Part shown: positions 1 through 11,709 of the stretch, one piece after another | Layout of the letters: every line of letters begins with the position of its first letter | Numbering within the stretch: the stretch's first letter is position 1 | DNA from: a virus | Lineage: Duplodnaviria > Heunggongvirae > Uroviricota > Caudoviricetes | Length of the DNA: 11,709 bases | Reading direction: 5' to 3' (one strand) | Virus record (IMG/VR): IMGVR_UViG_3300037455_000372 | Location: 1-11,709 of that record | Notes under the pieces: model-generated | Told to the model about the DNA's origin: nothing | Databases searched by the model: none | Seen by the model: the letters and a program-made list of their open reading frames with translations, nothing else | Position numbers and translations under genes: made by a program

Positions 1-781
1 AGTCACGGACTAACCTGTGCGATACTTGATGAAGGAAGTTTTTCCTTCTGTTACCCAGTTTTACATAGGCTGCGGCCAGTTGAATACGAACTTTCTCGTA
101 TCGACTGCCACCTTTCTTCGCCTTTGCTAGTTTCCTCTGCAAATGCCTAATCTTTCGCTCCGACTTCTTCTCGAAATGCGGATTCTTAATATTTTCTCCG
201 TTAGATAGAACAATGGTTGATTTGACACCGAGGTCGATTCCTACGCATTCGCCAGTATGTTCCATCTCTGGTACATCAACATCACAGCAGATTGAGCAAT
301 AGTAGTTGCCTTTTTTGCTCTTCTTGATTGTCACATTGTAGATTTTCTTGATGTTTTCGTGCTCGAATGTCTTGCCGAAACGGCACTTGACCATACCAAC
401 CTTCGGTAGTACAATGGAATTGCCAACAATTAGTTGCTTAATATCCTTATGGCACATGGCATTCCGGTAGCTCTGCTTGTCCTTCTTGGACTTGTATCTC
501 GGATACTTGGATTTGCCGGTAAAGAAGTTCTGGTAAGCTTGATTCATATCCATATAGGCATTAGCCAGTCCTTGTGAGTCAACTTCTTTCAGCCATTCCC
601 ATTCTTCCTTAAACGACTTCAATTTCGGCTGGAAGGACATCTTGGTCTCTTCGTAGATATATGACTTGATTTTAAGGCACTGGTTATACACGAAACGACA
701 GCAACCGAAGGTCTTCGCAAAGAATACCTTCTGCGCCTTGTTCGGATATAGCTTGATTTCTATGCCTTTCTTGACTATCAT
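1..781 (-). CDS. tnpB: RNA-guided endonuclease TnpB (IS200/IS605 family), 3'-truncated by the window edge
   Basis: Manual translation from ATG at 781, 260 codons open to the window edge: MIVKKGIEIKLYPNKAQKVFFAKTFGCCRFVYN...EWEWLKEVDSQGLANAYMDMNQAYQNFF...YPRYKSKK...VGIDLGVK...KNPHFEKKSERKIRHLQRKLAKAKKGGSRYEK...RRKNFLHQVSHRLVRD. Typical TnpB N-terminal HTH, YPRFKSK-like motif and RuvC-I motif with Asp183 intact (nt 233-235). Not in the supplied ORF track. Confidence 0.95.
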   Translation of the reverse strand, partial: MIVKKGIEIKLYPNKAQKVFFAKTFGCCRFVYNQCLKIKSYIYEETKMSFQPKLKSFKEEWEWLKEVDSQGLANAYMDMNQAYQNFFTGKSKYPRYKSKKDKQSYRNAMCHKDIKQLIVGNSIVLPKVGMVKCRFGKTFEHENIKKIYNVTIKKSKKGNYYCSICCDVDVPEMEHTGECVGIDLGVKSTIVLSNGENIKNPHFEKKSERKIRHLQRKLAKAKKGGSRYEKVRIQLAAAYVKLGNRRKNFLHQVSHRLVRD

Positions 782-818
782 ACGAAAAATCCTACCGGAA
801 CTCGCACTTCCGGTAGGA
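782..818 (-). terminator. Terminator-like hairpin plus U-tract immediately upstream of the tnpB ATG
   Basis: Minus strand TCCTACCGGAA-GTGCGAG-TTCCGGTAGGA (perfect 11-bp stem, 790-800/808-818), then TTTTT CGT ATG. Confidence 0.6.
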
Positions 819-883
819 CACAATGTACCTAAGTACATCTTAAACTTTCCCACGACGACAAGTGCGAGTTGCCTTCGTATATC

Positions 884-920
884 AGTTTATATATGTAGCA
901 AATTTTCCGAAAATCGTCAA
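884..920 (-). promoter_or_regulatory. Promoter region of tnpB: weak sigma70-like TTGACG-17-TACATA overlapping an ATATAAACT motif
   Basis: -35 at 915-920, -10 at 892-897 preceded by TTGC (this -10 lacks the conserved last T). ATATAAACT at 892-884. Confidence 0.45.
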
Positions 921-931
921 GCGGCTTTCAT

Positions 932-954
932 CTCACCCACTAAAGATGGGTGAG
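932..954 (-). repeat. IS200/IS605 left-end subterminal hairpin
   Basis: CTCACCCA-(T)C-TTTA-G-TGGGTGAG: 8-bp stem with a bulged T, in the context GAGAAAACTCACCCATCTTTAGTGGGTGAGATGAAAGCCGC, which resembles IS605-group ends. Confidence 0.75.
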
Positions 955-981
955 TTTTCTCGTCGCTATGTTATAAAAAAC

Positions 982-1335
982 CTAGCAGAATATCTTGTAA
1001 CCGATAAAACAGCACAGACCGGCTAACGGAAAGAAGTTGATACCGAATATGTGCGACCAGTAGAAATGCCAGTCATTGTATTCCGAGTGGCAGTCTTTAA
1101 CCTCTGGATATACGATAAAAATAAACCAAAAGAATACGACCGGCACCATACCTAGGATGGCGACGCCGAGACTTCCCATAATCGACAACAGGTCGACCGA
1201 CCGGTTAAACTTATCCGCCCAGAACAGATAGAACATTCCTACGTACGCGGCAAGCATAGGCCAGAAAACCGATATCCACAATAGATTGTCGCGACGGTCT
1301 TCGGCCTTCGATGGGGGTACCATATAGTCTCTCAT
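982..1335 (-). CDS. Hypothetical membrane protein (2-3 hydrophobic segments)
   Basis: 117-aa ORF with hydrophobic stretches LLWISVFWPMLAAYVGMFYLFW, LLSIMGSLGVAILGMVPVVFFWFIFIVY and IFGINFFPLAGLCCFIGY; co-oriented with its neighbours. Confidence 0.7.
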   Translation of the reverse strand: MRDYMVPPSKAEDRRDNLLWISVFWPMLAAYVGMFYLFWADKFNRSVDLLSIMGSLGVAILGMVPVVFFWFIFIVYPEVKDCHSEYNDWHFYWSHIFGINFFPLAGLCCFIGYKIFC

Positions 1336-1358
1336 TTTGTCTCCTGAAAGTAAGTAGG

Positions 1359-1859
1359 TTAAACATTACCAGAAAGCTTGTCTCTAAGCTTCTTGGCCTT
1401 CTTGCATCCACAGTCCGATGCGTAGTAGTACAAGACTTGCTTGAAATCGCGCAATGTAATGAAGTCCCACTCGAACTGCGGCGTGGGCGAGAAATACACC
1501 TTGCGCGTCGTGAGGATAGTCTTGCCGGTCTGCGACTTGATGAACTGGTACCGTGTCGTGTAAATCCTGACAAGGTTGTCCTTGAACACGACCTTGTATG
1601 GGATCTTGAAACTGGTCTCGTTTCCTTCACGAGTGACGAACACTACGCCGTAGGTAGTCTGTGTCAGCGTGGCGGCGATCTTGGACACGAGGTCGTCCAC
1701 TGACTTCTTCGGAAGGTCACTCACCCAATTCCAGATCCATTGGCTGTGATATTCCTTCGACTTATACTTCAGCACAGACTTCGGAAACCTGTACTTGTAC
1801 ACCGGAACCGAGACTGCGGTCACGGTACGGTAGAATTCGAGTTTGCTCTGTTTACGCAT
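1359..1859 (-). CDS. Hypothetical basic protein
   Basis: 166-aa ORF starting 3 nt after the stop of the upstream gene; operon-like packing; no recognised domain. Confidence 0.75.
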   Translation of the reverse strand: MRKQSKLEFYRTVTAVSVPVYKYRFPKSVLKYKSKEYHSQWIWNWVSDLPKKSVDDLVSKIAATLTQTTYGVVFVTREGNETSFKIPYKVVFKDNLVRIYTTRYQFIKSQTGKTILTTRKVYFSPTPQFEWDFITLRDFKQVLYYYASDCGCKKAKKLRDKLSGNV

Positions 1860-1862
1860 AGG

Positions 1863-2057
1863 CTAGTCTTCGAACACGATGGCCATACAGTCTCCGCCGA
1901 GAAGCGGGATATTGACCAGATTGGCTTCGAGCACGCACGGATAGATGCTGTAGCCGCCGCGCTTCTTTTTCTTCGCGACGACGACCTTGGTAATGCCTTC
2001 GATTGCTACGTTCGGAATCTTGTCCTTGATTGCCTTTTTCAGTTCTTCTACGTTCAT
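1863..2057 (-). CDS. Small hypothetical protein
   Basis: 64 aa; clear SD (AAGAGGA-CTAT-ATG) downstream of a TTGCTATATT promoter. Confidence 0.75.
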   Translation of the reverse strand: MNVEELKKAIKDKIPNVAIEGITKVVVAKKKKRGGYSIYPCVLEANLVNIPLLGGDCMAIVFED

Positions 2058-2084
2058 ATAGTCCTCTTTTGTTGATTTGTTTTA

Positions 2085-2094
2085 AATATAGCAA
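2085..2094 (-). promoter_or_regulatory. Extended -10 promoter TTGCTATATT for the leftward operon
   Basis: Exact copy of the recurring motif; predicted +1 at ~2078 gives a ~21-nt leader containing the SD. Confidence 0.65.
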
Positions 2095-2157
2095 CGAATT
2101 CCGAAAATCAACCTCGGTTTTCGAAAAATGACCGCGATTTTCAAAAATCCGACGGAG

Positions 2158-2166
2158 ATATAAACT
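2158..2166 (+). promoter_or_regulatory. ATATAAACT motif, candidate late promoter
   Basis: Intergenic, 26 nt before the ATG at 2193, followed by SD GAGG. One of four exact intergenic copies. Confidence 0.5.
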
Positions 2167-2192
2167 TCGATTACGAAACAACCGAGGAAACT

Positions 2193-3530
2193 ATGTCATA
2201 TAGAGGAATAGAAAACCTGAAATCCGCCGACGAAGTAGTCGAACTCACCCAAGAGCAGCGGAACACGCTCAAGCTCTGCCAAAACGACCCCTACCTGTTC
2301 ATCACTTCATTCGTGCAAACGACTTCCAAGGACGGCACCCACATATTGAAGCCCAGCCCCAGACAGCGAGCCGAGCTGGAAGTTCTGCAGAACCAGCGGT
2401 TCATCAAGTCGGACTGGTACAGACAGTCCGGCTACACGACCATCGTGCTCTCCTATTTCCTCTGGAAGGCGATGTTCACGCCCAATCTGGTACTGACCTA
2501 CTGCGCACCCAAGAAGGCTCAGGCGTACGCCGAGTTCGAGATGCACATCCGACAGGCCATCATCAGGCTCCCCTACGCCATCCAGCCCGGCGTCAAGACT
2601 TGGACGGAACACACAGTCACCTTCAAGAACGGAAGCTCCATCCTAGCGCGTCCAGCAGACCAGAAAAGCATATCCGGGTTCGCGTCCGACTACCTTTTCA
2701 TCGACGAGTTCGGATGGCTGACCGACAAGAAGATGCTGGAACTCACCCAGTCGGAGTTCGTGTGTATAAAGCACAGCGCACGTCGCCACCTCATCCTTGC
2801 CAACTCCCAGATATTCAGCGCACATTCAGAGGCCAACACCCTGTTCTGGAAGAACGGCGACATACCGTTCTACGCCTCCGTCAACACTTGGTGTGCCACA
2901 ACCAAGGAGGAAGAGGAGTTCGAGCAGAATATGAGGAAGTATATGGGCGACAAGGCTTTCGAGGCCGAATACGTCGGCATAAAGAAAGACCCCGAAAAGA
3001 AGAAGCTGTTCTGGGCGGAGAAAATAGACAGCCTTCCGGACCTCGTGAAGAAGAACCACTGGAAGGCCACTTTCCATAGCCAGAAGGCCGACTGGAAGTG
3101 GATCCAGGACAATATGGCAGTGACATCTTTCACCAACAGCCAAGTCGAGTTCAACGGCAACATCTACCCCGGCGTGATACTTGGAGTCTCCGAGTACGAG
3201 GGACACCCGGTTAGCGGAATGGACTTGGGCGGACTGGTCAACGTCGACATCGAGTATTTCGACTGGAAGTACGGCAAGTCGGCCGGAAAGGTGAGGTACA
3301 AGTGCCTAGCACTGCCTTCTATGGTCGAGGCCGCATCGCTGGACTACAAGGAATCCGACCACAAGCCGATGACCAGCACGATAAAGCTGATAGTTGTGGA
3401 ACGGTTAGGATTAACCTACGAGAAGGCCGATGTCCCGGAAACCTCGTACGAGGAAATCTGCAACTACCGTTGCATCAGCAACTACAGGGAGTCGATATCG
3501 TCTTGGCTGGAAACCAACGTCAAGCTATAG
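2193..3530 (+). CDS. Terminase large-subunit (T4 gp17-like) ATPase paralogue, degenerate, fused to a non-nuclease C-terminal domain
   Basis: N-terminal CQNDPYLF, adenine-binding-like PSPRQ, Walker A position RQSGYTT (aa 77-83; canonical RQxGKT), FKNGSSI, Walker B YLFIDE (aa 167-172), and domain end MGDKAFEAEY. No RNase H-like nuclease motifs recognised after aa ~265. Confidence 0.75.
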   Translation: MSYRGIENLKSADEVVELTQEQRNTLKLCQNDPYLFITSFVQTTSKDGTHILKPSPRQRAELEVLQNQRFIKSDWYRQSGYTTIVLSYFLWKAMFTPNLVLTYCAPKKAQAYAEFEMHIRQAIIRLPYAIQPGVKTWTEHTVTFKNGSSILARPADQKSISGFASDYLFIDEFGWLTDKKMLELTQSEFVCIKHSARRHLILANSQIFSAHSEANTLFWKNGDIPFYASVNTWCATTKEEEEFEQNMRKYMGDKAFEAEYVGIKKDPEKKKLFWAEKIDSLPDLVKKNHWKATFHSQKADWKWIQDNMAVTSFTNSQVEFNGNIYPGVILGVSEYEGHPVSGMDLGGLVNVDIEYFDWKYGKSAGKVRYKCLALPSMVEAASLDYKESDHKPMTSTIKLIVVERLGLTYEKADVPETSYEEICNYRCISNYRESISSWLETNVKL

Positions 3531-3533
3531 GAC

Positions 3534-3749
3534 TCACTTGCGGTCGGTGCATTCGTAGTGGAACTTCTGCTGCAGAAGCTTCAATTCGTAGTTCAGGCTG
3601 TCGATCTGGTGCCTCTGTCGGTCGTTAACGACGCGTAGGCACTTGTTGTTGTCTTCAATGATGTCGCCACGGCAACCGTTCTCAATAGTAGGTTCCGTGC
3701 AGCCCACGAACAAGAAGCCCAAAATCGAAATAGCTATCAGCTTCTTCAT
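3534..3749 (-). CDS. Small lipoprotein
   Basis: MKKLIAISILGFLFVG-C: basic N-terminus, hydrophobic core and lipobox Cys. Start placed at 3749, 2 nt after the upstream stop. Confidence 0.75.
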   Translation of the reverse strand: MKKLIAISILGFLFVGCTEPTIENGCRGDIIEDNNKCLRVVNDRQRHQIDSLNYELKLLQQKFHYECTDRK

Positions 3750-3751
3750 AC

Positions 3752-4048
3752 TCACCACCTAGATGCGCAATAATACGCCAAGTTCTTATAGCTCAACTGT
3801 CCGTTCTCAGTGACGACCTCGCGGCCTTTCTCGGTACGCTTGGCCATCTTGCGGCATTCCCAACGGATGGTCTTTCCGAAGATGCTGGTACCGAACCAGC
3901 AGTAACCGTTCGTCTCCCCTGCGGAGAAGTAGTGTACCAGAGTGTCCTTGGTAGCCGGGTTCCATACCGTGAACTGGTGACAGGTACCGGATTCGGCAAG
4001 GCCGTAGCCAGCCAGTAGACAAACGAGAATCAGTAGAGTCTTCATCAT
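3752..4048 (-). CDS. Small secreted protein with signal peptide
   Basis: MMKTLLILVCLLAGYGLA-ES signal peptide; mature part contains several Cys. Confidence 0.75.
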   Translation of the reverse strand: MMKTLLILVCLLAGYGLAESGTCHQFTVWNPATKDTLVHYFSAGETNGYCWFGTSIFGKTIRWECRKMAKRTEKGREVVTENGQLSYKNLAYYCASRW

Positions 4049-4061
4049 ATAAATTTCGCGC

Positions 4062-4349
4062 TTAACCGCGCTTTTCCTTCTTGAGTTCCGTAGAAATTCC
4101 GGTCAGACGCACGACAACGGATTTTTCGCAATTCCAGCACTTCGCTACAATCTTGGAATGGTTATCGAACATATCACGCAATGGATATGCGTGGGTACCT
4201 CGTGCGTTGCAGTGCGGACACTCCCAAGTGATTTCAGCCGTGATAGGAAAGGTCACTTGAGTTGCCTTGACTTTTAGCATTCCTCCGTGATTCAACGGGC
4301 CGGGTTTCCTCTGGATTTTCTCAGTATCTCGCATATTTTCAATAGTCAT
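4062..4349 (-). CDS. Zinc-ribbon protein
   Basis: CPHC...CWNC pairs flanked by beta-strand-like segments. Start moved to ATG 4349, which lies 6 nt after TATAAT. Confidence 0.7.
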   Translation of the reverse strand: MTIENMRDTEKIQRKPGPLNHGGMLKVKATQVTFPITAEITWECPHCNARGTHAYPLRDMFDNHSKIVAKCWNCEKSVVVRLTGISTELKKEKRG

Positions 4350-4355
4350 ACCACA

Positions 4356-4401
4356 ATTATAGCAATCCGATATGGACAGCGCAATAGCCAATTGCTATAT
4401 T
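4356..4401. promoter_or_regulatory. Overlapping divergent sigma70-type promoters
   Basis: Minus: TTGCGC(4379-4384)-17-TATAAT(4356-4361)-6-ATG. Plus: TGGACA(4373-4378)-17-TATATT(4396-4401)-6-ATG. Both -10 boxes are preceded by TTGC. Confidence 0.75.
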
Positions 4402-4407
4402 TTGAAT

Positions 4408-4446
4408 ATGACAGCTGACGAAGCCAGAAGCCAGAGGTTAATATGA
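4408..4446 (+). CDS. 12-aa leaderless upstream ORF (MTADEARSQRLI)
   Basis: ATG lies at the predicted +1; its TGA overlaps the next ATG (ATGA). Confidence 0.45.
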   Translation: MTADEARSQRLI

Positions 4447-4598
4447 GTTCTAGTTACGAACAATACTGGGCAGCGTGCGACCCGTACGACGCGTTCTTGT
4501 CCAAAGAAGAAAAGGAAAAGCACGAGACAGAAGTCTTGGCAAACCATCCGGAATATTTAGAACGGCTGAATAGTTCAGACAACACTAGAGAGGATTAG
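4443..4598 (+). CDS. Small acidic hypothetical protein (51 aa), below the ORF-track cutoff
   Basis: MSSSYEQYWAACDPYDAFLSKEEKEKHETEVLANHPEYLERLNSSDNTRED; SD-like GAGG upstream; fills the gap downstream of a promoter. Confidence 0.65.
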   Translation: MSSSYEQYWAACDPYDAFLSKEEKEKHETEVLANHPEYLERLNSSDNTRED

Positions 4599-4627
4599 CA
4601 ACTATATCGGCTTCTTGCCATTCAATT

Positions 4628-4667
4628 AAAACAATAGGGGCATCCAGCGTCGACACTGGATGCTCCC
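4628..4667 (-). terminator. Intrinsic terminator for a minus-strand transcript
   Basis: GGG-A-GCATCCAGTG-TCGA-CGCTGGATGC-CCC followed by TATTGTTTT on the minus strand. Confidence 0.75.
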
Positions 4668-4881
4668 ATGACATACACATCCTTGGTAATAAGGAGAGCG
4701 GGATGTCGGCCAATAATTTGGTAATTGGCTAACCTCCGTGCATAACATTCACGGTGACGGGCCGACTACCTTTAACGAGCTGTTTCGGCCTCGTCTTAAT
4801 TCCGGACAGATGTCAACCGCTTTTGACATCCTACCAGACTCTTTGCTCGACGGCTTCCAGAGAACCACCAATGGAGCCTGT
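4628..4881 (-). ncRNA. Candidate ~250-nt structured ncRNA, family not recognised
   Basis: Bounded by a promoter (TTGGCA-18-TATATT, +1 at A4881, no ATG there) and a terminator. Only a weak 26-codon internal ORF noted. Contains multiple stems and an H-type pseudoknot. Confidence 0.6.
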
Positions 4882-4959
4882 ACCGAAAATATAGCAAAGT
4901 CTGAGCTATTTTGCCAACTAGTTGCTAAAATTTGCCAACTTGTTGCTATATTTTCGGTA
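4881..4959. promoter_or_regulatory. Divergent promoter pair formed by a perfect 17-bp inverted repeat TTGCTATATTTTCGGTA
   Basis: 4943-4959 (+) and 4897-4881 (-) are identical. The last A is the A of ATG 4959 on + and the first base of the ncRNA candidate on -. Confidence 0.75.
4910..4951 (+). repeat. Tandem 21-bp imperfect direct repeat
   Basis: TTTGCCAACTAGTTGCTAAAA / TTTGCCAACTTGTTGCTATAT (18/21 identical); the first copy contains the palindrome CAACTAGTTG. Confidence 0.7.
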
Positions 4960-5186
4960 TGTACTCATTTATTGTCGAACATCTGGGCGAAGAAGGCACT
5001 TGGTGGCTGGTTCTGTGCATAGTCGAACTGTCGATATTCTGCTTCTTCGAGATGTTCTCGATCGTCTTCGAGACAGCCGACGACGGCGTAACCCCGACAC
5101 CGAAGACGTTCAGGAACTACCAGATATTCGTGATAATCAGCGTGGCCGTATCGACCATATTCTTCATCGCTTGCCATTACTTGTAG
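4959..5186 (+). CDS. Small two-helix membrane protein
   Basis: 75 aa from ATG 4959 (6 nt after TATATT); hydrophobic WWLVLCIVELSIFCFFEMFSIVF and YQIFVIISVAVSTIFFIACHYL. Confidence 0.7.
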   Translation: MYSFIVEHLGEEGTWWLVLCIVELSIFCFFEMFSIVFETADDGVTPTPKTFRNYQIFVIISVAVSTIFFIACHYL

Positions 5187-5772
5187 GAGTCAGCTTCAGC
5201 CGCATACCACGGCTTGCCGAACCGACGAGGTCGGCCTCGAACTCGTGGCCTATGGGGTAGCCGTATGAACTCTTGTCGTTCCATTCGTAATGAACCTTGA
5301 AAAGGAACACGGTGGCGTAGTACGTACCGTCGTCCCTGCGGTGAACGGTCAGACCGAGTCCGCTGTAGTAGCTGTAGTCACGGTTATACCGATCCAGAAT
5401 GCATTGCGTGTCCACGTCTCGCCAATGGTATTTCCCGATGTAGAAGATGCACCTGACGCCTACATTGGCCTCGTTTCCGTACCATTTGCTGGAATCGTTC
5501 AGATCGTCGGTATATCTGAGATTGAGGTAGAAATCGTAGAACTGTACGTTCGGAACCTTCAAGAACACCTTGTCCTTGGTTATCCTGACCCGTAGATCCC
5601 TCAAGGCGTCGATTATACGCTTCTTGCGTGCCGAATCCTTGTTGACTTGCGCCGTACATTCGGCCAGACCGACGACTCCGGCTCCCAGATACGATACGTT
5701 CGGCCAGTACCGGTTCAGCTTGTCTCGGCGGGTCTTCCTTTCAGGCGGTATAAAACGTGGGTCTCTTTTCAT
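5164..5772 (-). CDS. Hypothetical protein (start uncertain: ATG 5772, TTG 5835 or ATA 5838)
   Basis: Long ORF with Tyr/Asp-rich beta-type C-terminal half; no recognised domain. Confidence 0.7.
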   Translation of the reverse strand: MKRDPRFIPPERKTRRDKLNRYWPNVSYLGAGVVGLAECTAQVNKDSARKKRIIDALRDLRVRITKDKVFLKVPNVQFYDFYLNLRYTDDLNDSSKWYGNEANVGVRCIFYIGKYHWRDVDTQCILDRYNRDYSYYSGLGLTVHRRDDGTYYATVFLFKVHYEWNDKSSYGYPIGHEFEADLVGSASRGMRLKLTPTSNGKR

Positions 5773-5844
5773 ATCCGGAAAGATAGGAAATGCCGGTTTG
5801 AAGTGCAAATTACTTGAACGCCTTGTAGTTACCAATATATGGAT

Positions 5845-5895
5845 AATATAGCAAATGCGTCCGTATGTGACAACTAAGGCTGGATTTGCTATATT
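5845..5895. promoter_or_regulatory. Divergent sigma70-type promoters sharing overlapping -35 hexamers
   Basis: Plus: GTGACA(5867-5872)-17-TATATT(5890-5895)-7-ATG. Minus: TTGTCA(5868-5873)-17-TATATT(5845-5850). Confidence 0.75.
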
Positions 5896-5902
5896 GGATT
5901 GT

Positions 5903-6511
5903 ATGAGTAGAAAAGACTATTACAACTTGACCCAACTGAAAGAACGTGGATGGACACCTTCGATGGTTAAGAAAATCGTCGATATACCGCCAACCGAGTT
6001 CAAGGGTATGTACGCCAAACAGCCGCAGAAGTGTTATCCGAAGGAATATATCGAAAAGTTGGAACAGAGTGAGCTGTTCACTGAGTTGAAACTGAAAGCA
6101 GCTGGTAGGCAAGTTGCTATGAAAGCAGTAGCTGACGCGAAGCGGTCAGACAACATCGCCAAGTTCTCCGCACGAGTGGATTCCGTAAAGATACCAGCAT
6201 TGACGGAAGATGAACTGAAATCACGCACGATCAAGTCCAAGCAACGCTGGTACTCTTATCAGTCTGAACTGCGGTGTGAAGCCGATGACGGAATTGACAT
6301 CGAACATCTACCGGCTAACGTGTTACATCGCTGGGAAGTCAATTATATTCGCCACGAGCTGACCAGATATGAAAAACTGCTTGACCAAATTCGCAGATTA
6401 GTCGGTACGCGTGATATATACACGGTTATCAAGGGTGAAATTCTTGATAAAATTGCGACCGCCTATCCATGGCTCAAGGACGAGTGCGACCGCCAGAAAG
6501 AGGTTATATAA
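5903..6511 (+). CDS. Conserved-looking hypothetical protein (LKERGWT...VNYIRHELTxY type)
   Basis: 202 aa from leaderless ATG 5903. The N-terminal LTQLKERGWTPSMVKK looks HTH-like, and I recall the motif pair from uncharacterised bacterial/phage proteins (not verified). Confidence 0.75.
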   Translation: MSRKDYYNLTQLKERGWTPSMVKKIVDIPPTEFKGMYAKQPQKCYPKEYIEKLEQSELFTELKLKAAGRQVAMKAVADAKRSDNIAKFSARVDSVKIPALTEDELKSRTIKSKQRWYSYQSELRCEADDGIDIEHLPANVLHRWEVNYIRHELTRYEKLLDQIRRLVGTRDIYTVIKGEILDKIATAYPWLKDECDRQKEVI

Positions 6512-6534
6512 AAATACCGCTATCGTTTGATAAG

Positions 6535-6561
6535 AAGACGACCGATGATGGTCGTCTTTTT
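6535..6561. terminator. Intrinsic terminator, probably bidirectional, between convergent genes
   Basis: AAGACGACC-GATGAT-GGTCGTCTT followed by TTT; the minus strand is followed by CTTAT. Confidence 0.75.
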
Positions 6562-6587
6562 GCGTAACGATGGGACGGCGAGAATCA

Positions 6588-7001
6588 TTAGTACGGTCGC
6601 CTAGCGTAAGTCTTTATCGTATATTTGCGGTGGATAGCTTGGTGGCATTGTTTGCAAACTACCATCACGTCGTTGGATGAATACTGCCACGGTAGATACC
6701 GTTGACCACGGTACTTTAAATAATACTTATGATGCACTTGCAACGGTCTGGCATTCGGGTTTCTGCACCATTCACATATGGTTCCACGTACACTGAATAT
6801 GTATTGTCGGAAGTTTTCCCATTCTTGCGTCTGAAGCAAGTCGGCATAAGTCCACGACCGTTGGACTGTTCCCTCTTCTTGGTATGAGTCGGAATAGCTG
6901 TCGGCATCATCGGATGATGTCAATTTGGACACCAGCTTGTATACGACGAATACGCCTATTATGAGTATAATCGGTAGCAGACTGGATATGGTAGTTGGCA
7001 T
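6588..7001 (-). CDS. HNH endonuclease with N-terminal transmembrane helix
   Basis: LLPIILIIGVFVVY hydrophobic segment, acidic linker, then EWENFRQYIF...CEWC...LQVHH..Y...PWQY...VVCKQCHQAIH (zinc-finger HNH). Confidence 0.85.
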   Translation of the reverse strand: MPTTISSLLPIILIIGVFVVYKLVSKLTSSDDADSYSDSYQEEGTVQRSWTYADLLQTQEWENFRQYIFSVRGTICEWCRNPNARPLQVHHKYYLKYRGQRYLPWQYSSNDVMVVCKQCHQAIHRKYTIKTYARRPY

Positions 7002-7007
7002 AAGTTT

Positions 7008-7036
7008 AATATAATAATCGGTGCAAAGACTGTCAA
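7008..7036 (-). promoter_or_regulatory. Near-consensus sigma70 promoter, leaderless
   Basis: TTGACA(7031-7036)-17-TATATT(7008-7013)-6-ATG(7001). Confidence 0.8.
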
Positions 7037-7137
7037 TGTTTCTTGTACTGTTCGGAATGCAGCGGTGCGGACTCGCCGCGAACGGTGTTGGCTGTTGCCG
7101 ACGGTGCTGGGAATATAAGGAAATTTACAAAATAGTA

Positions 7138-7166
7138 TTGACAAGTTTAATTAAAAATGTTATATT
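7138..7166 (+). promoter_or_regulatory. Near-consensus sigma70 promoter
   Basis: TTGACA(7138-7143)-17-TATATT(7161-7166) with TG extension. Confidence 0.8.
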
Positions 7167-7216
7167 ATGATTGTCGACGGCGTGGTGCCGTCGGCCAATT
7201 TTACAAAGGAGATAAA

Positions 7217-7741
7217 ATGGACAAATCAACTATTATTGGTACTTTTATTGGTAGTTTAGTGTCGGTCATCGTAGGCGTACTTGGCTTTTGGGGAAGTATT
7301 TATTTGGAAGATCGAAGATCCAGAAAACAACGTCTCGAAGATTTAAGCTATCAAATATATACTGATGTAACAAACCCAATAAATGCAGCGATGGCGTGTA
7401 TTGTGGAATTTATGCATCGTACACTTCCTTTAGTTAATAAGCAATCTGAATGCATTGCGTTAGATCCATCAATTATCACTAGCTTGAGCCAATATTTGCA
7501 TACACTTCTTAATGGTATTCAAAAACATACTGATTTAAACCATATTGATAAGCAAGTATTCGTATCATTGGCAACTCGTTTGAAACCAGCCATTAGAGCA
7601 ATCGATGATTTTATTGACGATAATGACGGAGCCATTACAAAATCAGTTGTAGAAGCCATTATCGCGAAAACTAATCCGATTTTGGTAGAAGCAAAAGCTT
7701 GTGTAGATATGTGTATGCCAGATTGGCATAATATTATATAA
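7217..7741 (+). CDS. Hypothetical protein with N-terminal membrane anchor
   Basis: Start placed at 7217 after SD AAGGAG; IIGTFIGSLVSVIVGVLGFWGSIYL segment followed by a helical soluble domain. Confidence 0.75.
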   Translation: MDKSTIIGTFIGSLVSVIVGVLGFWGSIYLEDRRSRKQRLEDLSYQIYTDVTNPINAAMACIVEFMHRTLPLVNKQSECIALDPSIITSLSQYLHTLLNGIQKHTDLNHIDKQVFVSLATRLKPAIRAIDDFIDDNDGAITKSVVEAIIAKTNPILVEAKACVDMCMPDWHNII

Positions 7742-7773
7742 AACAGATTGACTGATTCAAGACTACAGAAAGT

Positions 7774-7800
7774 CGCCTCGCGAGACCGCGAGGCGTTTTA
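7774..7800 (+). terminator. Intrinsic terminator
   Basis: CGCCTCGCG-AGAC-CGCGAGGCG followed by TTTTA. Confidence 0.8.
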
Positions 7801-7808
7801 TATAAACT
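7800..7808 (+). promoter_or_regulatory. ATATAAACT motif, candidate late promoter of the glycan-gene cluster
   Basis: Directly after the terminator, 23 nt before ATG 7832 with SD AAGGA. Confidence 0.5.
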
Positions 7809-7831
7809 GGATATAGTATAAAAGGACTAAT

Positions 7832-8455
7832 ATGAAAATTTTTGTCGTTGGTAGCAGTAAAAATACCTTCTTACCGTTAAATGACATTCGTACTAAGTTT
7901 TTAGTCGATGTTCCGCACGACGGTTCAAACATCGACTTTCTCAATCCGTGGTATTGCGAGTTAACTGGGCTATATTATATGTGGCAGCATTGTACCGACG
8001 ACATCATAGGACTGGAGCACTATCGTCGGTATTTTGTAAATAGTGATAATATGTTGTTGTCGTCGGCTGAAATTTTAAATATGTTAACTAATACTGATAT
8101 GTTGGTTAGAGAATATGTATTTCCCGAAGACCGTCCTAATGCACTAGCTCATTTTTCCGCCGAGCGGCTGCCATTCTTATTACGATTCGTCGATTCATTT
8201 AATCTTGACGAAAAGAATTTCTTTATGGATAGACTAAGCAATAGTCGTCGATTCGCACAATGCAATATGTTTATAGGCAAGCGATCAATTATTGATACGT
8301 ATTGCCGATGGTTGTTAAAATACGCATCAAAAATTCCGTTTGACGATATGATTCGGTCACCTCGTATCATTGGCTATTTAGCCGAGTTCGTCTTTGGCTT
8401 TTGGCTAGATTATATGGGGTATAAAACGAAATGGTGTCCTAGTATAACAGTATAG
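7832..8455 (+). CDS. DUF4422-family glycosyltransferase-like protein
   Basis: DGSNIDFLNPWYCELTGLYYMWQHCTDDIIGLEHYRRYF, CNMFIGK...YCRWL and RIIGYLAE match the DUF4422 pattern seen in polysaccharide loci. Confidence 0.85.
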   Translation: MKIFVVGSSKNTFLPLNDIRTKFLVDVPHDGSNIDFLNPWYCELTGLYYMWQHCTDDIIGLEHYRRYFVNSDNMLLSSAEILNMLTNTDMLVREYVFPEDRPNALAHFSAERLPFLLRFVDSFNLDEKNFFMDRLSNSRRFAQCNMFIGKRSIIDTYCRWLLKYASKIPFDDMIRSPRIIGYLAEFVFGFWLDYMGYKTKWCPSITV

Positions 8456-8463
8456 AGGTGTGT

Positions 8464-9090
8464 ATGTTTGTTATTGCAAATAATTGCGGCGGCGCGGATT
8501 ATTATAACTTGCACAATACAGAATTTAATAATCCATTTATGTGGTCGTGTTGCTTTGCGGCAGATATATTACGAATAATTCAACAATTTTATCATATAAA
8601 TTGGTCTAACATCACACCAACTTTTATGACAGAATCCACCGCAATTAGTAATAATTACATTGAGTTCCAGCAATTTATACCGGGGTTTATAATTGATGGA
8701 CTTGCTGAGATATATTATACCCATTACTTATATGATGCTTACTGTGAGCAGCCGACGATACGCGGAAGTAATACATATCATCGTCAAAACTATAAATATG
8801 CATTTCAAAAATACATAAGTCGAACAGCTAAAATGTGTAAGCTTACTGAACCGCCGTGTTTTTTAATTATAACCTATAAACGACATGGGTGGAATGATGA
8901 TACGTTTAAACAATTATCAACCTTAAATACTGACTTGAAAATGTGTATTATATCATCCAAATCCATTAACGGTTTGACACCAAATATAAAATTGTTTTAC
9001 GAACCCGATTTAGATTCGCCAGCGACCTATTTACCAATTACTATGGTTAAAAAATATAATTTGGACATAACAAAACATTTTATGGGGTAA
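8464..9090 (+). CDS. DUF1919-like polysaccharide-locus protein
   Basis: N-terminal VIANNCGG..YY.....EFNNPFMW resembles the DUF1919 IISNNCWGG...NPF motif; SD GAGG 5 nt before ATG 8464. Confidence 0.65.
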   Translation: MFVIANNCGGADYYNLHNTEFNNPFMWSCCFAADILRIIQQFYHINWSNITPTFMTESTAISNNYIEFQQFIPGFIIDGLAEIYYTHYLYDAYCEQPTIRGSNTYHRQNYKYAFQKYISRTAKMCKLTEPPCFLIITYKRHGWNDDTFKQLSTLNTDLKMCIISSKSINGLTPNIKLFYEPDLDSPATYLPITMVKKYNLDITKHFMG

Positions 9091-9091
9091 T

Positions 9092-9667
9092 ATGAAATAT
9101 CCTTGTACAATGGGCGTACTCCGGACGGAAGCCGGACTGAAAATCAAGCAGCGAATCAGCCAATATCTCGAACCGAGGTTCAAGATATTCTACGTCGAGC
9201 AAGATCCTCCCGGAAAGCTGTTCGAATATCCCGGCATTATGTTCGCATTGAAGATGGCCGTCGACCTAAACAAGCCGACGCTATATATCCATACCAAGGG
9301 TGCCGCCGACCCTCACCATATGTGGTACCAAACGCCAGTTAAAAAACTCTGGGCTTACGAGTTCGGAACCGAGAAAGTGGTTAAGACATACCAGAGAGCG
9401 TGTACAGACGTACCCACGGTCATCTGTCCTATTGCTGGGTCCGAAAAGCAGACTTGGTGGAACGGAATGATTATCAACCCAGCGGCAGCCAAGGAAATCC
9501 AGAAGACATTCCACTTCGACACGAACCGTTTCTACTACGAGTTCTCGATGTGCAACCTTCCAACGGTGAACGTCGTATCATCCGCCATATCGGGAACCCT
9601 CAGCGAGGACGATACCAACCGCCTACTGAGGGAAATTACCAAGGATATGCCGGATATCGATTATTAG
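9092..9667 (+). CDS. Putative glycan-modification-associated protein (LYIHTKG motif)
   Basis: 191 aa; FEYPG...TLYIHTKGA...WWNG pattern resembles uncharacterised proteins I recall beside glycosyltransferases in phages and giant viruses (not verified); starts 1 nt after the upstream stop. Confidence 0.6.
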   Translation: MKYPCTMGVLRTEAGLKIKQRISQYLEPRFKIFYVEQDPPGKLFEYPGIMFALKMAVDLNKPTLYIHTKGAADPHHMWYQTPVKKLWAYEFGTEKVVKTYQRACTDVPTVICPIAGSEKQTWWNGMIINPAAAKEIQKTFHFDTNRFYYEFSMCNLPTVNVVSSAISGTLSEDDTNRLLREITKDMPDIDY

Positions 9668-10518
9668 AATATATGATCGCTCATTGGACCGCGTTTTTGG
9701 CCAAGGTGAGCTAGTGACATTTTTCGCCGTGTCTCTTCGCTAATTGGTTTGCGTGGTTTATTGCTGGCTGCTATAGTTGCGTTTCGTTTTTTGACGATTT
9801 CATCCTTACGCTCCGCCCACATTTGCTTCATTCGTATACTGCGAGCAGCTCGTTGTTCTGGTGTAGCTTTCTTTCCAGTTCTATTGGCTTTGTTAGCCTC
9901 TACAATTCGGCGACGACCTTCTTCTGATAAAGGGTGCGGTCGACCTCGACGAACTTCCGATAAATGAGCCTTTTGTTCTTCAGTCCAGTGACCGCCAGTC
10001 CTTTCATTTCGTGTTTTAACAGCTTTCCGTGCTATTTCTGGGTCACGTTTACGACCAGTAAGCGTTTGTGATATCTTCTTGCGCTGTTCTTCGGATATTG
10101 GTCTTCCTTTACTCGTTATTGAATTGTATTCGACGGATTCCAGAAATGCGGTTTCATACGCGGTTGCAATGGATTTGGCTTGGTCTTCCGACATCTCCGT
10201 AATATATCGTGCTTTATCATCAACCATTAGCCTAAAGGTTAATGCCATTGGCGATTTAAAAACTGGCTTTGCTAGTACATAATAGTAATAATGCACCATA
10301 AAGTGGTCTCTAACAGCTAGGCTGATAAGATTGTCTAAGTCGTTGTCGATGTCTTCCCCTAACAGTTTGCTAAAGCATTTGGGGAATTTATGATGTAACG
10401 CTCGACCGTCGTTGCATCCCTTCTTTTTAGGAAAGCTTTCGTTTGCGTTGAATATGGCAATTACTTCTTGCCACAGCGGATTTTCGGTATCAAATACCTT
10501 ACTAAAATCGTGTTCCAT
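9664..10518 (-). CDS. HNH homing endonuclease with multiple NUMOD3 DNA-binding repeats
   Basis: LHHKFPKCF...DNDLDNLISLAVRDHFMVH nuclease motif; NUMOD3-type repeats ISEEQRKKISQTLTG, WTEEQKAHLSEVRRG, LSEEGRRRIVEA and ISEETRRKMSLAHLG. Confidence 0.85.
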   Translation of the reverse strand: MEHDFSKVFDTENPLWQEVIAIFNANESFPKKKGCNDGRALHHKFPKCFSKLLGEDIDNDLDNLISLAVRDHFMVHYYYYVLAKPVFKSPMALTFRLMVDDKARYITEMSEDQAKSIATAYETAFLESVEYNSITSKGRPISEEQRKKISQTLTGRKRDPEIARKAVKTRNERTGGHWTEEQKAHLSEVRRGRPHPLSEEGRRRIVEANKANRTGKKATPEQRAARSIRMKQMWAERKDEIVKKRNATIAASNKPRKPISEETRRKMSLAHLGQKRGPMSDHIF

Positions 10519-10570
10519 AATATAAAAAGGCCAGATGACGCCTAAAAATGGAACACAGCATCATCCGGCC
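10519..10570 (-). terminator. Terminator-like hairpin plus U-tract immediately upstream of the HNH-NUMOD3 ATG
   Basis: GGCCGGATGATGC (10570-10558) / GCGTCATCTGGCC (10541-10529): 13 pairs including 2 G-U, 16-nt loop, then TTTTT ATATT ATG. Confidence 0.65.
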
Positions 10571-10618
10571 CGAAAAATCTCTATCCAGACAGGTTCCATT
10601 CCATCTGAACTATCAATA

Positions 10619-10627
10619 AGTTTATAT
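10619..10627 (-). promoter_or_regulatory. ATATAAACT motif, candidate late promoter
   Basis: Exact copy, 100 nt upstream of ATG 10518. Confidence 0.5.
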
Positions 10628-10743
10628 GGTGGAACCGATTTCTTATTCAATAAATTACATCAAGAGACGGATTGGTGGTTAAACTCATACCACCAAGTTT
10701 ATAAGTTTACGCAACAAGTCCGAGCCGTCGCAGCCGTGGCCGG

Positions 10744-10772
10744 TTGCGTAGATTGAGCGTTTTTGCTATATT
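10744..10772 (+). promoter_or_regulatory. Sigma70-type promoter, leaderless
   Basis: TTGCGT(10744-10749)-17-TATATT(10767-10772)-7-ATG(10780); TTGC precedes the -10. Confidence 0.75.
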
Positions 10773-10779
10773 TCCGTAT

Positions 10780-11427
10780 ATGATCAATTCGTACATATAT
10801 TGCGGTTCAGAAGACAAGTATGACTGGGACACACTGTTTCAAGAGTGCTTCCCTATTGACAACATAGCCCGGAAACATATGATCCAGGTTATCAACGAGC
10901 TACGTCAGCGAGTGTCCAATACCGAAAAGATGACGCAGCACCATATCATTCCGCGTTGTTTCTACGAATACAAGAACCTGAAGTGCGACAATTCGCAGAA
11001 CAACCTGATTTACGTTACCCAAGAGGAGCACCTGTTCCTTCATTCGTGCGCTGTCGCTTGCTGTAACTATAATCTCAAGTCGAAGCTTAAACAGCCGGTA
11101 ATCGCGATGCTGGGCTACTGGAAGGACGCACAGAAAGAAGGGATACGTAGATACGTCGCTAACGGTGGCAAGATGGGACCTCCACCGAAACAACGACCAG
11201 CAGAGTCTATCTGGAAGCCGATTATAGAGAAAGTCAACGCGAACGAAATGACTGTTAGAGAAGCATTGTCGATATTGAATTTGAAGCGCACTACATTCTA
11301 TAAATTATTTATGAATGAACTAAACCGAGATAGGAATGTTTATTCACGTACAATGAGTGCTATGCGCACCAACTCGGTTCATTCCTCTTCATCGTCCTTG
11401 ACGACGATGTCTTCTCCGACCGAGTAG
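10780..11427 (+). CDS. HNH endonuclease fused to a resolvase/invertase-type arm and HTH
   Basis: TQHHIIPRCF...DNSQNNLIYVTQEEHLFLH nuclease motif, then AQKEGIRRYVANGGKMGPPP...MTVREALSILNLKRTTFYK, resembling the C-terminus of serine recombinases. Confidence 0.8.
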   Translation: MINSYIYCGSEDKYDWDTLFQECFPIDNIARKHMIQVINELRQRVSNTEKMTQHHIIPRCFYEYKNLKCDNSQNNLIYVTQEEHLFLHSCAVACCNYNLKSKLKQPVIAMLGYWKDAQKEGIRRYVANGGKMGPPPKQRPAESIWKPIIEKVNANEMTVREALSILNLKRTTFYKLFMNELNRDRNVYSRTMSAMRTNSVHSSSSSLTTMSSPTE

Positions 11428-11709
11428 AGTTCCTTCAGGTTCTTCAGCTTGGTGCAAGTTTCGTCATACAGCTGGCAGAACGCCATCGCGTAGCCGATAG
11501 CAGCGACCAGACGCGGTATGCCACCCTCGGCGTACCAGCAAAACGGTTCCGACCCCAGCTTGTCCTCTGTCGGGTGTCTCAAGCAAGCCCTGAACTTGTC
11601 TCTCTTCGGCGTATAGGTGATATGGCAGTCGATGCAGATGTTCCTCACTCCGGAATCCACCATAAGCTCCACCGATATGGGTTCGCTCTCGCTCGGAACG
11701 ATGGTCGTC
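11379..11709 (-). CDS. Hypothetical protein, 5'-truncated by the window edge
   Basis: The frame of the 97-aa track ORF stays open upstream of 11672 to the window end (..TTIVPSESEPISVELMVDSG..); acidic C-terminus DDEEE. Confidence 0.7.
   Translation of the reverse strand, partial: TTIVPSESEPISVELMVDSGVRNICIDCHITYTPKRDKFRACLRHPTEDKLGSEPFCWYAEGGIPRLVAAIGYAMAFCQLYDETCTKLKNLKELYSVGEDIVVKDDEEE

Follow-up and report, generated by a model that had tools for sequence, protein, structure and literature searches.

Leaders with complementary hairpin loops before selfish nuclease genes in a 355-kb phage genome

How selfish nucleases spare the genome that carries them is an old question that has been answered in detail for only a few genes of phage T4. 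The same question is posed by an 11,709-nucleotide (nt) stretch of a tailed-phage genome (positions 1 to 11,709 of IMG/VR record IMGVR_UViG_3300037455_000372; hereafter the window), in which a transposon gene, tnpB, and a homing endonuclease gene, HNH-NUMOD3, each lie about 100 nt behind a copy of one promoter-like motif and directly behind a strong hairpin. A first reading made from the sequence alone had singled out these two leaders and proposed that they are a convergent or phage-imposed attenuation system gating toxic nucleases. All the features that it described in front of the two genes are present on the minus strand where it placed them. What emerges is a compact RNA module, variable in sequence and constant in structure. 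It is found in front of nuclease genes from five or more unrelated families, one of them that of TnpB, from which Cas12 descends, and it moves between families.

The window is the first 11.7 kb of one 355,392-bp contig of 49% G+C, referred to as G000 when the whole genome is meant. When the end of the contig is joined to its start, tnpB gains one codon and then a stop, and the gene is not continued. Since IMG/VR lists the record as linear and 93% complete, tnpB is taken to be cut by the assembly at the contig start and need not be a pseudogene. Relatives of tnpB were taken from nine IMG/VR loci (L001-L009, TnpB 75-95% identical) and from metagenomes, where an 18-mer scan gave 57 loci, of which 35 were dropped as chance matches and 22 were kept.

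A promoter-like motif and its long leaders

The motif TATAAACT has 58 copies in the 355-kb genome against about 12 expected, and the 9-mer ATATAAACT has 33 against 3 expected. TATAAACT is nearly always intergenic and faces a gene, often directly 3' of a terminator hairpin, and at 49 of the 58 sites an ATG follows 16-45 nt downstream, with a mode of 25 and a usual distance of 22-34 nt. The genes behind it include two terminase-large-subunit-like genes and a baseplate wedge gene. By analogy with the T4 motif TATAAATA, we infer that TATAAACT is a late-type promoter. The 9-mer is found exactly four times in the window, at 884-892 and 10619-10627 on the minus strand and at 2158-2166 and 7800-7808 on the plus strand. 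From its end to the ATG there are 102 nt for tnpB and 100 nt for the HNH gene; the other two copies have short leaders, as the sequence-only reading had stated:

2158..2166, plus strand: canonical ATATAAACT, predicted promoter, 26 nt before a terminase-large-subunit-like gene
7800..7808, plus strand: canonical ATATAAACT, predicted promoter, 23 nt before a DUF4422 gene and directly after a terminator

Across the genome, leaders of 100-157 nt behind TATAAACT precede six protein genes only, and all six are selfish nucleases (G000 coordinates):

ATG 781, minus strand: tnpB-1, leader 102 nt; OrfB_IS605
ATG 10518, minus strand: HNH-NUMOD3, leader 100 nt; NUMOD3, phrog_655
ATG 16763, plus strand: orf431, leader 100 nt; RuvC-type motifs GIDMN, AIEDL and NPAYSSQ, phrog_12300 'transposase' (6e-7)
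ATG 67214, minus strand: 414-amino-acid (aa) protein, leader 122 nt; C2H2 zinc finger and DUF559 nuclease domain
ATG 238399, plus strand: DUF7487 / phrog_3339 protein of 349 aa, leader 110 nt; homing endonuclease
ATG 337497, minus strand: GIY-YIG gene, leader 157 nt; GIY-YIG

The product of orf431 (G000 16763-18058; L090:763-2058) is a TnpB-like protein that is free of the zinc finger; it gave no match in Pfam and no sequence match in the PDB. The DUF559 gene (G000 65970-67214) sits inside a tRNA array, with tRNAs on both sides.

The enrichment before nuclease genes that the first reading had asked to be checked is thus seen genome-wide, with six of six long leaders on one side and 49 other sites with leaders of 16-45 nt on the other. 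Counted as nucleases and other genes, the long leaders score 6/0 and the short ones 2/47 (Fisher test, p=1e-6), where most short-leader genes are unannotated and some may also be nucleases; the two identified among the 49 are tnpB-2 (245005) and an HNH gene (69936). The leader is not a general mark of nucleases, since tnpB-2 and two HNH genes of this genome are without it. A scan that ignored the motif and looked for a hairpin plus T4 within 16 nt of an ATG returned six sites genome-wide, and only the two window genes among them had both the promoter distance and the loop complement. A loose descriptor (two hairpins with a loop complement of at least 6 nt before an ATG) is by itself unspecific, because its 9 genome sites compare with 5-13 in shuffled sequences; the case is made by covariation, promoter distance and gene association together. 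That the arrangement exceeds chance is borne out by the motif count and by compensatory changes in relatives that maintain the tnpB pairings.

Complementary loops in mobile nuclease cassettes

Folding predicts the same design in five of the six long leaders, namely two hairpins, H1 and H2, with complementary loops:

tnpB-1: H1 loop CUCGCAC, H2 loop segment GUGCGAG
HNH-NUMOD3: H1 loop AAUGGAAC, H2 loop segment GUUCCAUU
orf431: H1 loop GAGCGAG, H2 loop CUCGCUC, two 7-nt loops that are full complements
DUF559: H1 loop GUGGCACUC, H2 loop segment GAGUGCCAC
DUF7487: H1 loop GUGGAACUC, H2 loop segment GAGUUCCAC

The complement spans 6-9 nt and in some versions can be extended to a longer duplex. H1 sits near the 5' end, at a distance of 1-11 nt from the promoter motif, and a middle hairpin usually comes next. 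The gap between the end of H2 and the AUG measures 7-18 nt in the five copies of this genome and 3 nt in the relative L119, and most versions have a run of U5-6 after H2. Several versions share the string AGGAUUUUU there, by which an AGGA resembling a Shine-Dalgarno (SD) sequence falls within the 3' strand of H2, some 8 nt ahead of the AUG. An AGGA in this strand is seen in the tnpB, orf431 and AT-rich HNH versions, the last of which are described below. The DUF559 and DUF7487 leaders are homologous, with one compensated difference. In two leaders the H2 loop is also complementary to the start codon and the next 5-6 nt, namely HNH (AUGGAACAC, 9 nt) and DUF7487 (UGGAACUC, 8 nt; G000 238399), while seven of the nine leader versions are without such a complement. 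The two-hairpin design was not found in the 157-nt GIY-YIG leader (G000 337497-337662; L091), which has runs of G7, T8 and G11; the gene (614 aa) has a normal GGAG SD.

The tnpB-1 leader lies within a transposon, here a TnpB-only insertion sequence (IS). Its features in the window are:

972..977, minus strand: TTTATA target motif, probable target-adjacent motif (TAM), directly 5' of the IS left end
1..971, minus strand: IS200/IS605-type TnpB-only element, a 190-nt left end and tnpB, cut at codon 260 by the contig start
932..954, minus strand: left-end subterminal hairpin CTCACCCA-TCTTTAG-TGGGTGAG, presumed TnpA recognition, 16 nt inside the element end
884..892, minus strand: ATATAAACT, late-type promoter motif inside the IS, TATAA(A/G)CT in all IS copies
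857..873, minus strand: H1, GGCAA-[CUCGCAC]-UUGUC, closing pair covarying (GC 15, AU 6)
823..838, minus strand: middle hairpin AUGUAC-UUAG-GUACAU, 4 of 6 pairs changed on both sides among 21 leaders
791..817, minus strand: H2, stem CCUACCGG/CCGGUAGG, loop AAGUGCGAGUU, terminator-like, SD-like AGGA at its 3' end
785..789, minus strand: U5 run after H2, at least 5 T in 9 of the 9 loci retrieved via the protein
2..781, minus strand: tnpB coding sequence, first 260 codons; HTH_OrfB_IS605, OrfB_IS605; phrog_506

The 11-nt AACTCGCACTT (870-860) and the H2 loop AAGTGCGAGTT (809-799) are perfectly complementary, and the GC-rich hairpin CCTACCGG/CCGGTAGG (817-791) is followed by T5, with the ATG (781-779) 9 nt after the stem. 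The first reading had seen an upstream strand able to pair with the hairpin loop. The complement stands, but the strand is not free, and the contact is one of loop to loop between two hairpins. It had also found no clear SD before either gene. The H2 of the window HNH gene indeed holds none, but in tnpB the 3' strand of H2 includes the SD-like AGGA, at 8 nt from the AUG. The leader folds more stably than its shuffles (z -4.9), and H2 passes a simple terminator scan if part of its loop is counted as stem.

To follow the pairs through evolution we aligned 21 distinct tnpB leaders and counted them. With the predicted partners 98.9% of cells are paired, compared with 18-36% when the partners are slid, and none of 500 shuffles match the covariation score. 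In the loop-loop helix every sequence pairs throughout (100%), although three positions have changed on both sides and the loop core comes in six variants (CGCA/TGCG, GGTC/GACC, GGTA/TACC, AGCC/GGCT, GGAC/GTCC and GGAA/TTCC). The H2 stem is invariant, in part as a retrieval effect, H2 having been part of the search pattern for the 22 metagenome loci. A further pairing put forward by the first reading, of the 5' end of the tnpB leader with the AUG, was rejected; it is 82% paired, but 160 of 500 shuffles do as well, and it has no evolutionary support.

The tnpB loci can be aligned up to window position 971, beyond which they are unrelated to the window and to one another. The break in homology falls 190 nt upstream of the tnpB ATG, right after TTTATA, at 20 distinct insertion sites, and TTTATA is invariant in all 20 while the flanks are unrelated. 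Since homology begins at the IS left end in 20 sites, the tnpB promoter and leader are transposon sequence. In relatives the complete element measures about 1.47 kb; its 423-aa TnpB open reading frame (ORF) extends into the right end, which is what an omega RNA scaffold would lead one to expect, and the right-end hairpin CCCACCGG-TCTTTAG-CCGGTGGG, with the same loop as the left end, precedes the element end TAGTTCAT. In the window Pfam HTH_OrfB_IS605 is aligned from residue 1 of TnpB and OrfB_IS605 comes next, up to the contig start; the full-length, 95% identical relative L002 has HTH_OrfB_IS605, OrfB_IS605 and the zinc-ribbon TNB domain. The TnpB domains, the subterminal hairpins without terminal inverted repeats and the fixed 5' target motif are the hallmarks of IS200/IS605, and by these the element is a canonical IS200/IS605-type TnpB-only element whose left end holds the promoter motif and the whole leader.

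Several side observations concern this element. Read on the plus strand, the left-end hairpin (932-964) is followed by TTTT and is terminator-like; it could stop antisense transcription out of the element, as the IS200 left-end terminator does. The target TTTATA lies inside the complement of the late-type promoter, AGTTTATA being the reverse complement of TATAAACT, and AGTTTATA occurs at 10 of 20 insertion sites against a 30% background for plain TTTATA (p=0.08, not significant). The tnpB-2 element (40% identical; G000 243845-245005) adjoins, at G000 245110-245148 (L012), the TATAAACT of a divergent 1736-aa gene, with the motif and its 28-nt leader intact, which fits a promoter that needs no upstream element.

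The second window leader belongs to a cassette of a different kind:

10619..10627, minus strand: ATATAAACT, predicted promoter of the HNH cassette, kept in L014-L021
10583..10610, minus strand: H1, stem GUUCAGAUGG/CUGUCUGGAU, loop AAUGGAAC, present in the minimum-free-energy (MFE) fold; the loop is the 8-nt complement
10528..10571, minus strand: H2, stem of 13-15 bp, 16-nt loop UGUGUUCCAUUUUUAG that could pair over 8 nt with the H1 loop or over 9 nt with AUGGAACAC at the start codon
10524..10528, minus strand: U5 run after H2, in the window, L014 and L015; degraded to UAUUUGUAUU in L016-L021
9664..10518, minus strand: HNH-NUMOD3 homing endonuclease gene; NUMOD3 5e-9; phrog_655/314 homing endonuclease

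Here GTTCCATT (10554-10547), part of the 16-nt H2 loop, is perfectly complementary to the 8-nt AATGGAAC (10600-10593), the H2 strands are GGCCGGATGATGC/GCGTCATCTGGCC (10570-10529) with T5 behind them, and the ATG lies 10 nt after the stem (z -4.1 for the fold against shuffles). This H2, with its 16-nt loop, was unflagged by the terminator scan. The second complement sets the start region (10510-10518) against the H2 loop (10548-10556), so that the H1 loop mimics the start region, and this 9-nt complement is invariant in relatives. The structure is predicted to form on the sense RNA only, because H1 contains four G.U pairs; the single stem change in L015 turns a G-C into a G.U pair. The promoter and leader remain about 95% identical while the protein falls from 94 to 58% identity and the flanks are unrelated, and homology of the cassette starts 20-45 nt upstream of the motif. 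A region with the motif HHK..N..H is common to 17 HNH homologs, the Pfam HNH model itself giving no score.

More distant homologs from AT-rich jumbo phages (L022-L025, 47-39% identity) have another leader sequence of the same design. H1 has the stem AAUUAGGAA/UUCUUAAUU and the loop UGGCGG, a covarying middle hairpin is next, and H2 pairs CCUCUU with AAGGAGG around the loop UAGAACCGCCAUUCU, followed by AUUUUUAUAUG; in L025 the H2 stem is CCUAUU/AAUAGG. HNH homologs in phage contigs of roughly 30 kb have no leader. The HNH gene is absent from the syntenic relative L013 (93% identical), where window positions 4953-11386, a variable island, are replaced by a different 5.4-kb block, leaving no empty-site comparison for the cassette. 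A group I intron was considered as the source of the HNH leader and rejected, there being no Rfam intron match, an ORF convergent with a plus-strand gene, and unrelated flanks.

In L100 a leader of the AT-rich family stands before a canonical TnpB and has the kissing pair GUAGCAG/CUGCUAC (12 loci fitted a gapped pattern for this leader, and only L100 and L027 were real). The orf431 leader is homologous to the same family, with UUAGGAA..UUCCUAA in H1 and UCCUAU-UAGAAC..UUCU-AUAGGAUUUUU in H2. Across the family the kissing pairs are UGGCGG/CCGCCA, GUAGCAG/CUGCUAC and GAGCGAG/CUCGCUC, and the H2 stems are CCUCUU/AAGGAGG, CCUAUU/AAUAGG and CCUAUC/GAUAGG; these pairs were read from single-sequence folds and not formally counted, MAFFT having placed the AT-rich and orf431 leaders out of structural register. 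A left end and leader of the tnpB-1 type stand in L084 before a 42%-identical orf431 homolog (L084:612-1529) and not before TnpB. DUF7487 endonucleases occur at the nrdD-nrdG junction of several phages (L116-L120; G000 about 238000-240000) with different leaders: v5 in L118, a UUGGCGUUC/GAACGCCAA version in L119 and L120, and none in L116 and L117.

Because one homologous leader family stands before HNH, canonical TnpB and zinc-finger-less TnpB-like genes, the module is exchanged between nuclease families and not only convergent. The origin suggested by the first reading therefore needs revision. A phage-imposed system does not agree with a tnpB leader that is IS left-end sequence at 20 sites, nor with an HNH leader about 95% identical in unrelated flanks, and simple convergence does not agree with the same leader before different nuclease families (L084, L100 and orf431).

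Searches for known relatives gave little. Among Rfam 15 covariance models (E<=1), which include the IS605-orfB and HEARO motifs, riboswitches and ribozymes, none matched the window, and in six loci with other leader versions the only matches were flanking tRNAs and one chance-level MicX match. Megablast against a phage collection gave no match, nor did viral contigs searched by exact patterns from the HNH protein and from its neighbour, and full-text literature searches returned no paper describing such leaders. A bovine-gut metatranscriptome with 9% of the sampled words yielded five small contigs that match, of which two fall within the HNH ORF (9649-9950) and none on the leaders; such contigs cannot show transcript starts or ends.

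Other genes in and around the window were noted in passing. HNH-NUMOD3 homologs (L014-L025), many on jumbo-phage contigs, lie among glycosyltransferase and polysaccharide genes (DUF4422, Stealth_CR2, GLF, TupA-like, PS_pyruv_trans). Divergent from the HNH-NUMOD3 gene is a second nuclease gene (10744-11427, start codon uncertain), a fusion whose N-terminal part is HNH-like (phrog_655, 2e-6) and whose C-terminal part resembles DNA invertases (phrog_125), and the intergenic region between the two holds an extra TTATAAACT (10696-10704, minus strand) and two hairpins. Of the two terminase-large-subunit-like genes, both behind TATAAACT, the window copy (2193-3530, 445 aa) matches the N-terminal ATPase part only, while the second, 230 kb away (G000 230153-231835, 560 aa), matches the whole profile. 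TTGACA-N17-TATATT sites of the sigma-70 early type are separately present in the window, several at 4373-5895 and at 7138-7166. At 6588-7036 a near-consensus one precedes a small HNH gene (137 aa), and as its -10 box ends 7 nt before the ATG, the mRNA of that gene is probably leaderless and early.

What the leaders may do

The leader structure and the covariation within it are direct observations, as are the location in mobile elements and the association with nucleases. On balance we consider it probable that the leader is a cis-acting RNA owned by the mobile nuclease cassette and that it restrains nuclease production as a built-in brake; that it acts in this direction, and how the effect is divided between termination and translation, we infer. 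The unit would consist of the late-type promoter TATAAACT, H1 with its usual middle hairpin, a stable H2 before the AUG and, mostly, U5-6. The kissing contact of the H1 and H2 loops would lock H2 shut. H2 would then fill the ribosome landing zone and hinder 30S binding, in the tnpB and AT-rich HNH versions also holding the SD-like AGGA, and where a U-run follows, H2 would also stop part of the transcripts early, such that a strong late promoter might yield only a trickle of nuclease.

A number of points weigh against this reading. The promoter role of TATAAACT is itself deduced from position, orientation and downstream genes, and neither leader is covered by the one RNA library that turned up. 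In versions v5a and v5b the SD is not part of H2, the H2 loops, at 7-21 nt, are larger than is usual in intrinsic terminators, and the U-run is degraded in L016-L021, v5a and L119. The invariance of the tnpB H2 stem partly reflects how the 22 loci were retrieved. In the same genome tnpB-2 (25-nt leader) and the HNH gene at 69936 (19 nt) do without a long leader, and T4 tolerates loss of the I-TevI hairpin (PMC2988022). In several versions the computed MFE structure is an extended duplex and not two hairpins; a switch is for this reason possible, in which the kissing contact could oppose H2 instead of locking it.

Such a switch would be a conditional riboregulator with two states, H2 being a closed terminator or sequestor in one (with a pseudoknot between H2 loop and AUG in two versions) and having its loop captured by H1 or by the extended duplex in the other, and a trans factor (a phage antiterminator, a protein that binds the kissing complex, a helicase or a small ligand) would time nuclease expression. 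The hairpin and extended-duplex folds are nearly isoenergetic, with an MFE that flips among close homologs; the HNH and DUF7487 H2 loops complement both the H1 loop and the start region, making H1 look like a start-site decoy; and a terminator-like H2 with a competing pairing is the classic attenuator layout. We nevertheless regard this reading as doubtful, since H1 is a plain hairpin and neither a candidate factor nor a conserved pocket of aptamer size was found, since most leader versions are without the start-codon complement, and since the covariation favours H1 and H2 together, which fits a static kissing complex. The leader could instead be a positive element that guards the mRNA from 5'-end-dependent decay or recruits ribosomes and so allows late expression of weakly translated mobile genes, the hairpin near the AUG being neutral or activating. 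5'-terminal stem-loops do stabilise bacterial and phage mRNAs, H1 would be at the RNA 5' end, and the U-rich tract before the AUG could be an S1 or enhancer site. This is unlikely when a stable hairpin of 8-15 bp that stops 3-18 nt short of the AUG normally impedes the binding of 30S subunits, when about 49 late genes of the same phage manage with leaders of some 25 nt, and when stabilisation leaves the loop-loop contact to H2 unexplained.

Two further readings do not place the function in the nuclease mRNA. One takes an RNA of about 95 nt terminated at H2 as the product, a trans-acting small RNA (sRNA) like the IS200 5'tnpA, with the nuclease ORF expressed by leakage only. A 3' hairpin with a U-run is the usual layout of sRNAs and Hfq-binding RNAs, and the 5' untranslated region (UTR) of IS200, which is reportedly processed into a regulatory sRNA, provides a precedent. 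Variable, internally compensated loops point to an intramolecular partner and not to a conserved external target, the design is kept where the U-run is weak or absent, and no target was identified, all of which make this quite improbable. The other reading places the function at the level of DNA, the inverted repeats formed by the complementary arms helping the cassette to move or recombine when the DNA is single-stranded or forms a cruciform, much as IS200/IS605 elements use DNA hairpins at their ends. We give it very little credence; the IS already has separate end hairpins with a common loop, the design recurs in elements of unrelated mobility (homing and peel-and-paste), it is always between promoter and AUG in the sense orientation, and on the opposite strand its G.U pairs would turn into C.A mismatches.

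The cis-acting brake therefore remains our preferred reading. If the leader is a brake or a switch, it would supply a general, testable rule for the dosing of mobile nucleases in large phages, a small ready-made regulatory part for the expression of TnpB or homing endonucleases, and a new structured-RNA family for databases. More speculatively, and with no great confidence, the leader may be a new and widespread class of portable riboregulator traded among phage selfish nucleases, both homing endonucleases of several folds and RNA-guided TnpB, and may be a true switch opened at a defined moment of infection by a phage or host factor, or by competition of the H1 decoy and the start codon for the H2 loop. 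DNA cutting would then be coupled to the phase of replication and recombination in which homing or transposition can succeed.

Comparison with known systems

A close parallel is found in the T4 family, where hairpins that sequester the ribosome-binding site (RBS) hold down homing endonucleases (I-TevI, I-TevII, I-TevIII, segB and Aeh1 mobE), and where mobE and segF have terminators with this effect (Edgell, Gibb and Belfort 2010, PMC2988022). In both cases selfish nuclease genes of a phage are linked to late promoters, predicted ones here, and an RNA hairpin at the RBS or a weak intrinsic terminator is, or here would be, the restraint. One difference lies in the position of the promoter. In T4 it is inside the hairpin and late transcripts escape, while here TATAAACT stands before H1, about 100 nt upstream of the ATG, with no promoter motif inside the leaders, and the whole structure would be transcribed. 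A second hairpin and a contact between loops are both missing in T4, whereas here promoter and leader form a portable module that is also found before transposon TnpB genes.

In the IS200 left end a terminator hairpin, an SD-sequestering stem-loop in the tnpA 5'UTR and the antisense art200 are combined (Ellis, Trussler and Haniford 2015, PMC4513863). The two elements belong to the same superfamily, IS200/IS605, and in each the left end carries a promoter and a structured 5'UTR that limits, or here is predicted to limit, the gene of the element. IS200 controls tnpA by one long stem-loop and a trans antisense RNA, whereas here it is tnpB that would be regulated, by three hairpins with a kissing contact inside one molecule, and the analysis found no sign of an antisense RNA. 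Known TnpB-only elements of the IS1341 type, which have a 3' omega RNA, share OrfB_IS605, Cas12f1-like_TNB, subterminal end hairpins, a fixed 5' target motif and an ORF that runs into the right end. The present element differs in residing in jumbo phage genomes, in a left end with a phage late-type promoter and a kissing-loop leader, and in a TTTATA target within the complement of that promoter; the transposon would thus have adopted the late promoter of its host phage, as far as that promoter is correctly predicted.

Kissing-loop regulators include ColE1 RNA I/RNA II, R1 CopA/CopT and L5-L13 of the cobalamin riboswitches. These resemble the leaders in their 6-7 bp contacts between fully complementary loops, and in the cobalamin riboswitch the second hairpin carries the RBS. 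The plasmid systems act in trans, sense against antisense RNA, and the riboswitch contact needs a large ligand-binding aptamer that is absent from the leaders described here. Restraint of selfish nucleases by leader hairpins is established. What appears to be new is the two-hairpin kissing architecture, its portability across HNH, PD-(D/E)XK-type, DUF7487 and TnpB genes, and its residence in an IS left end.

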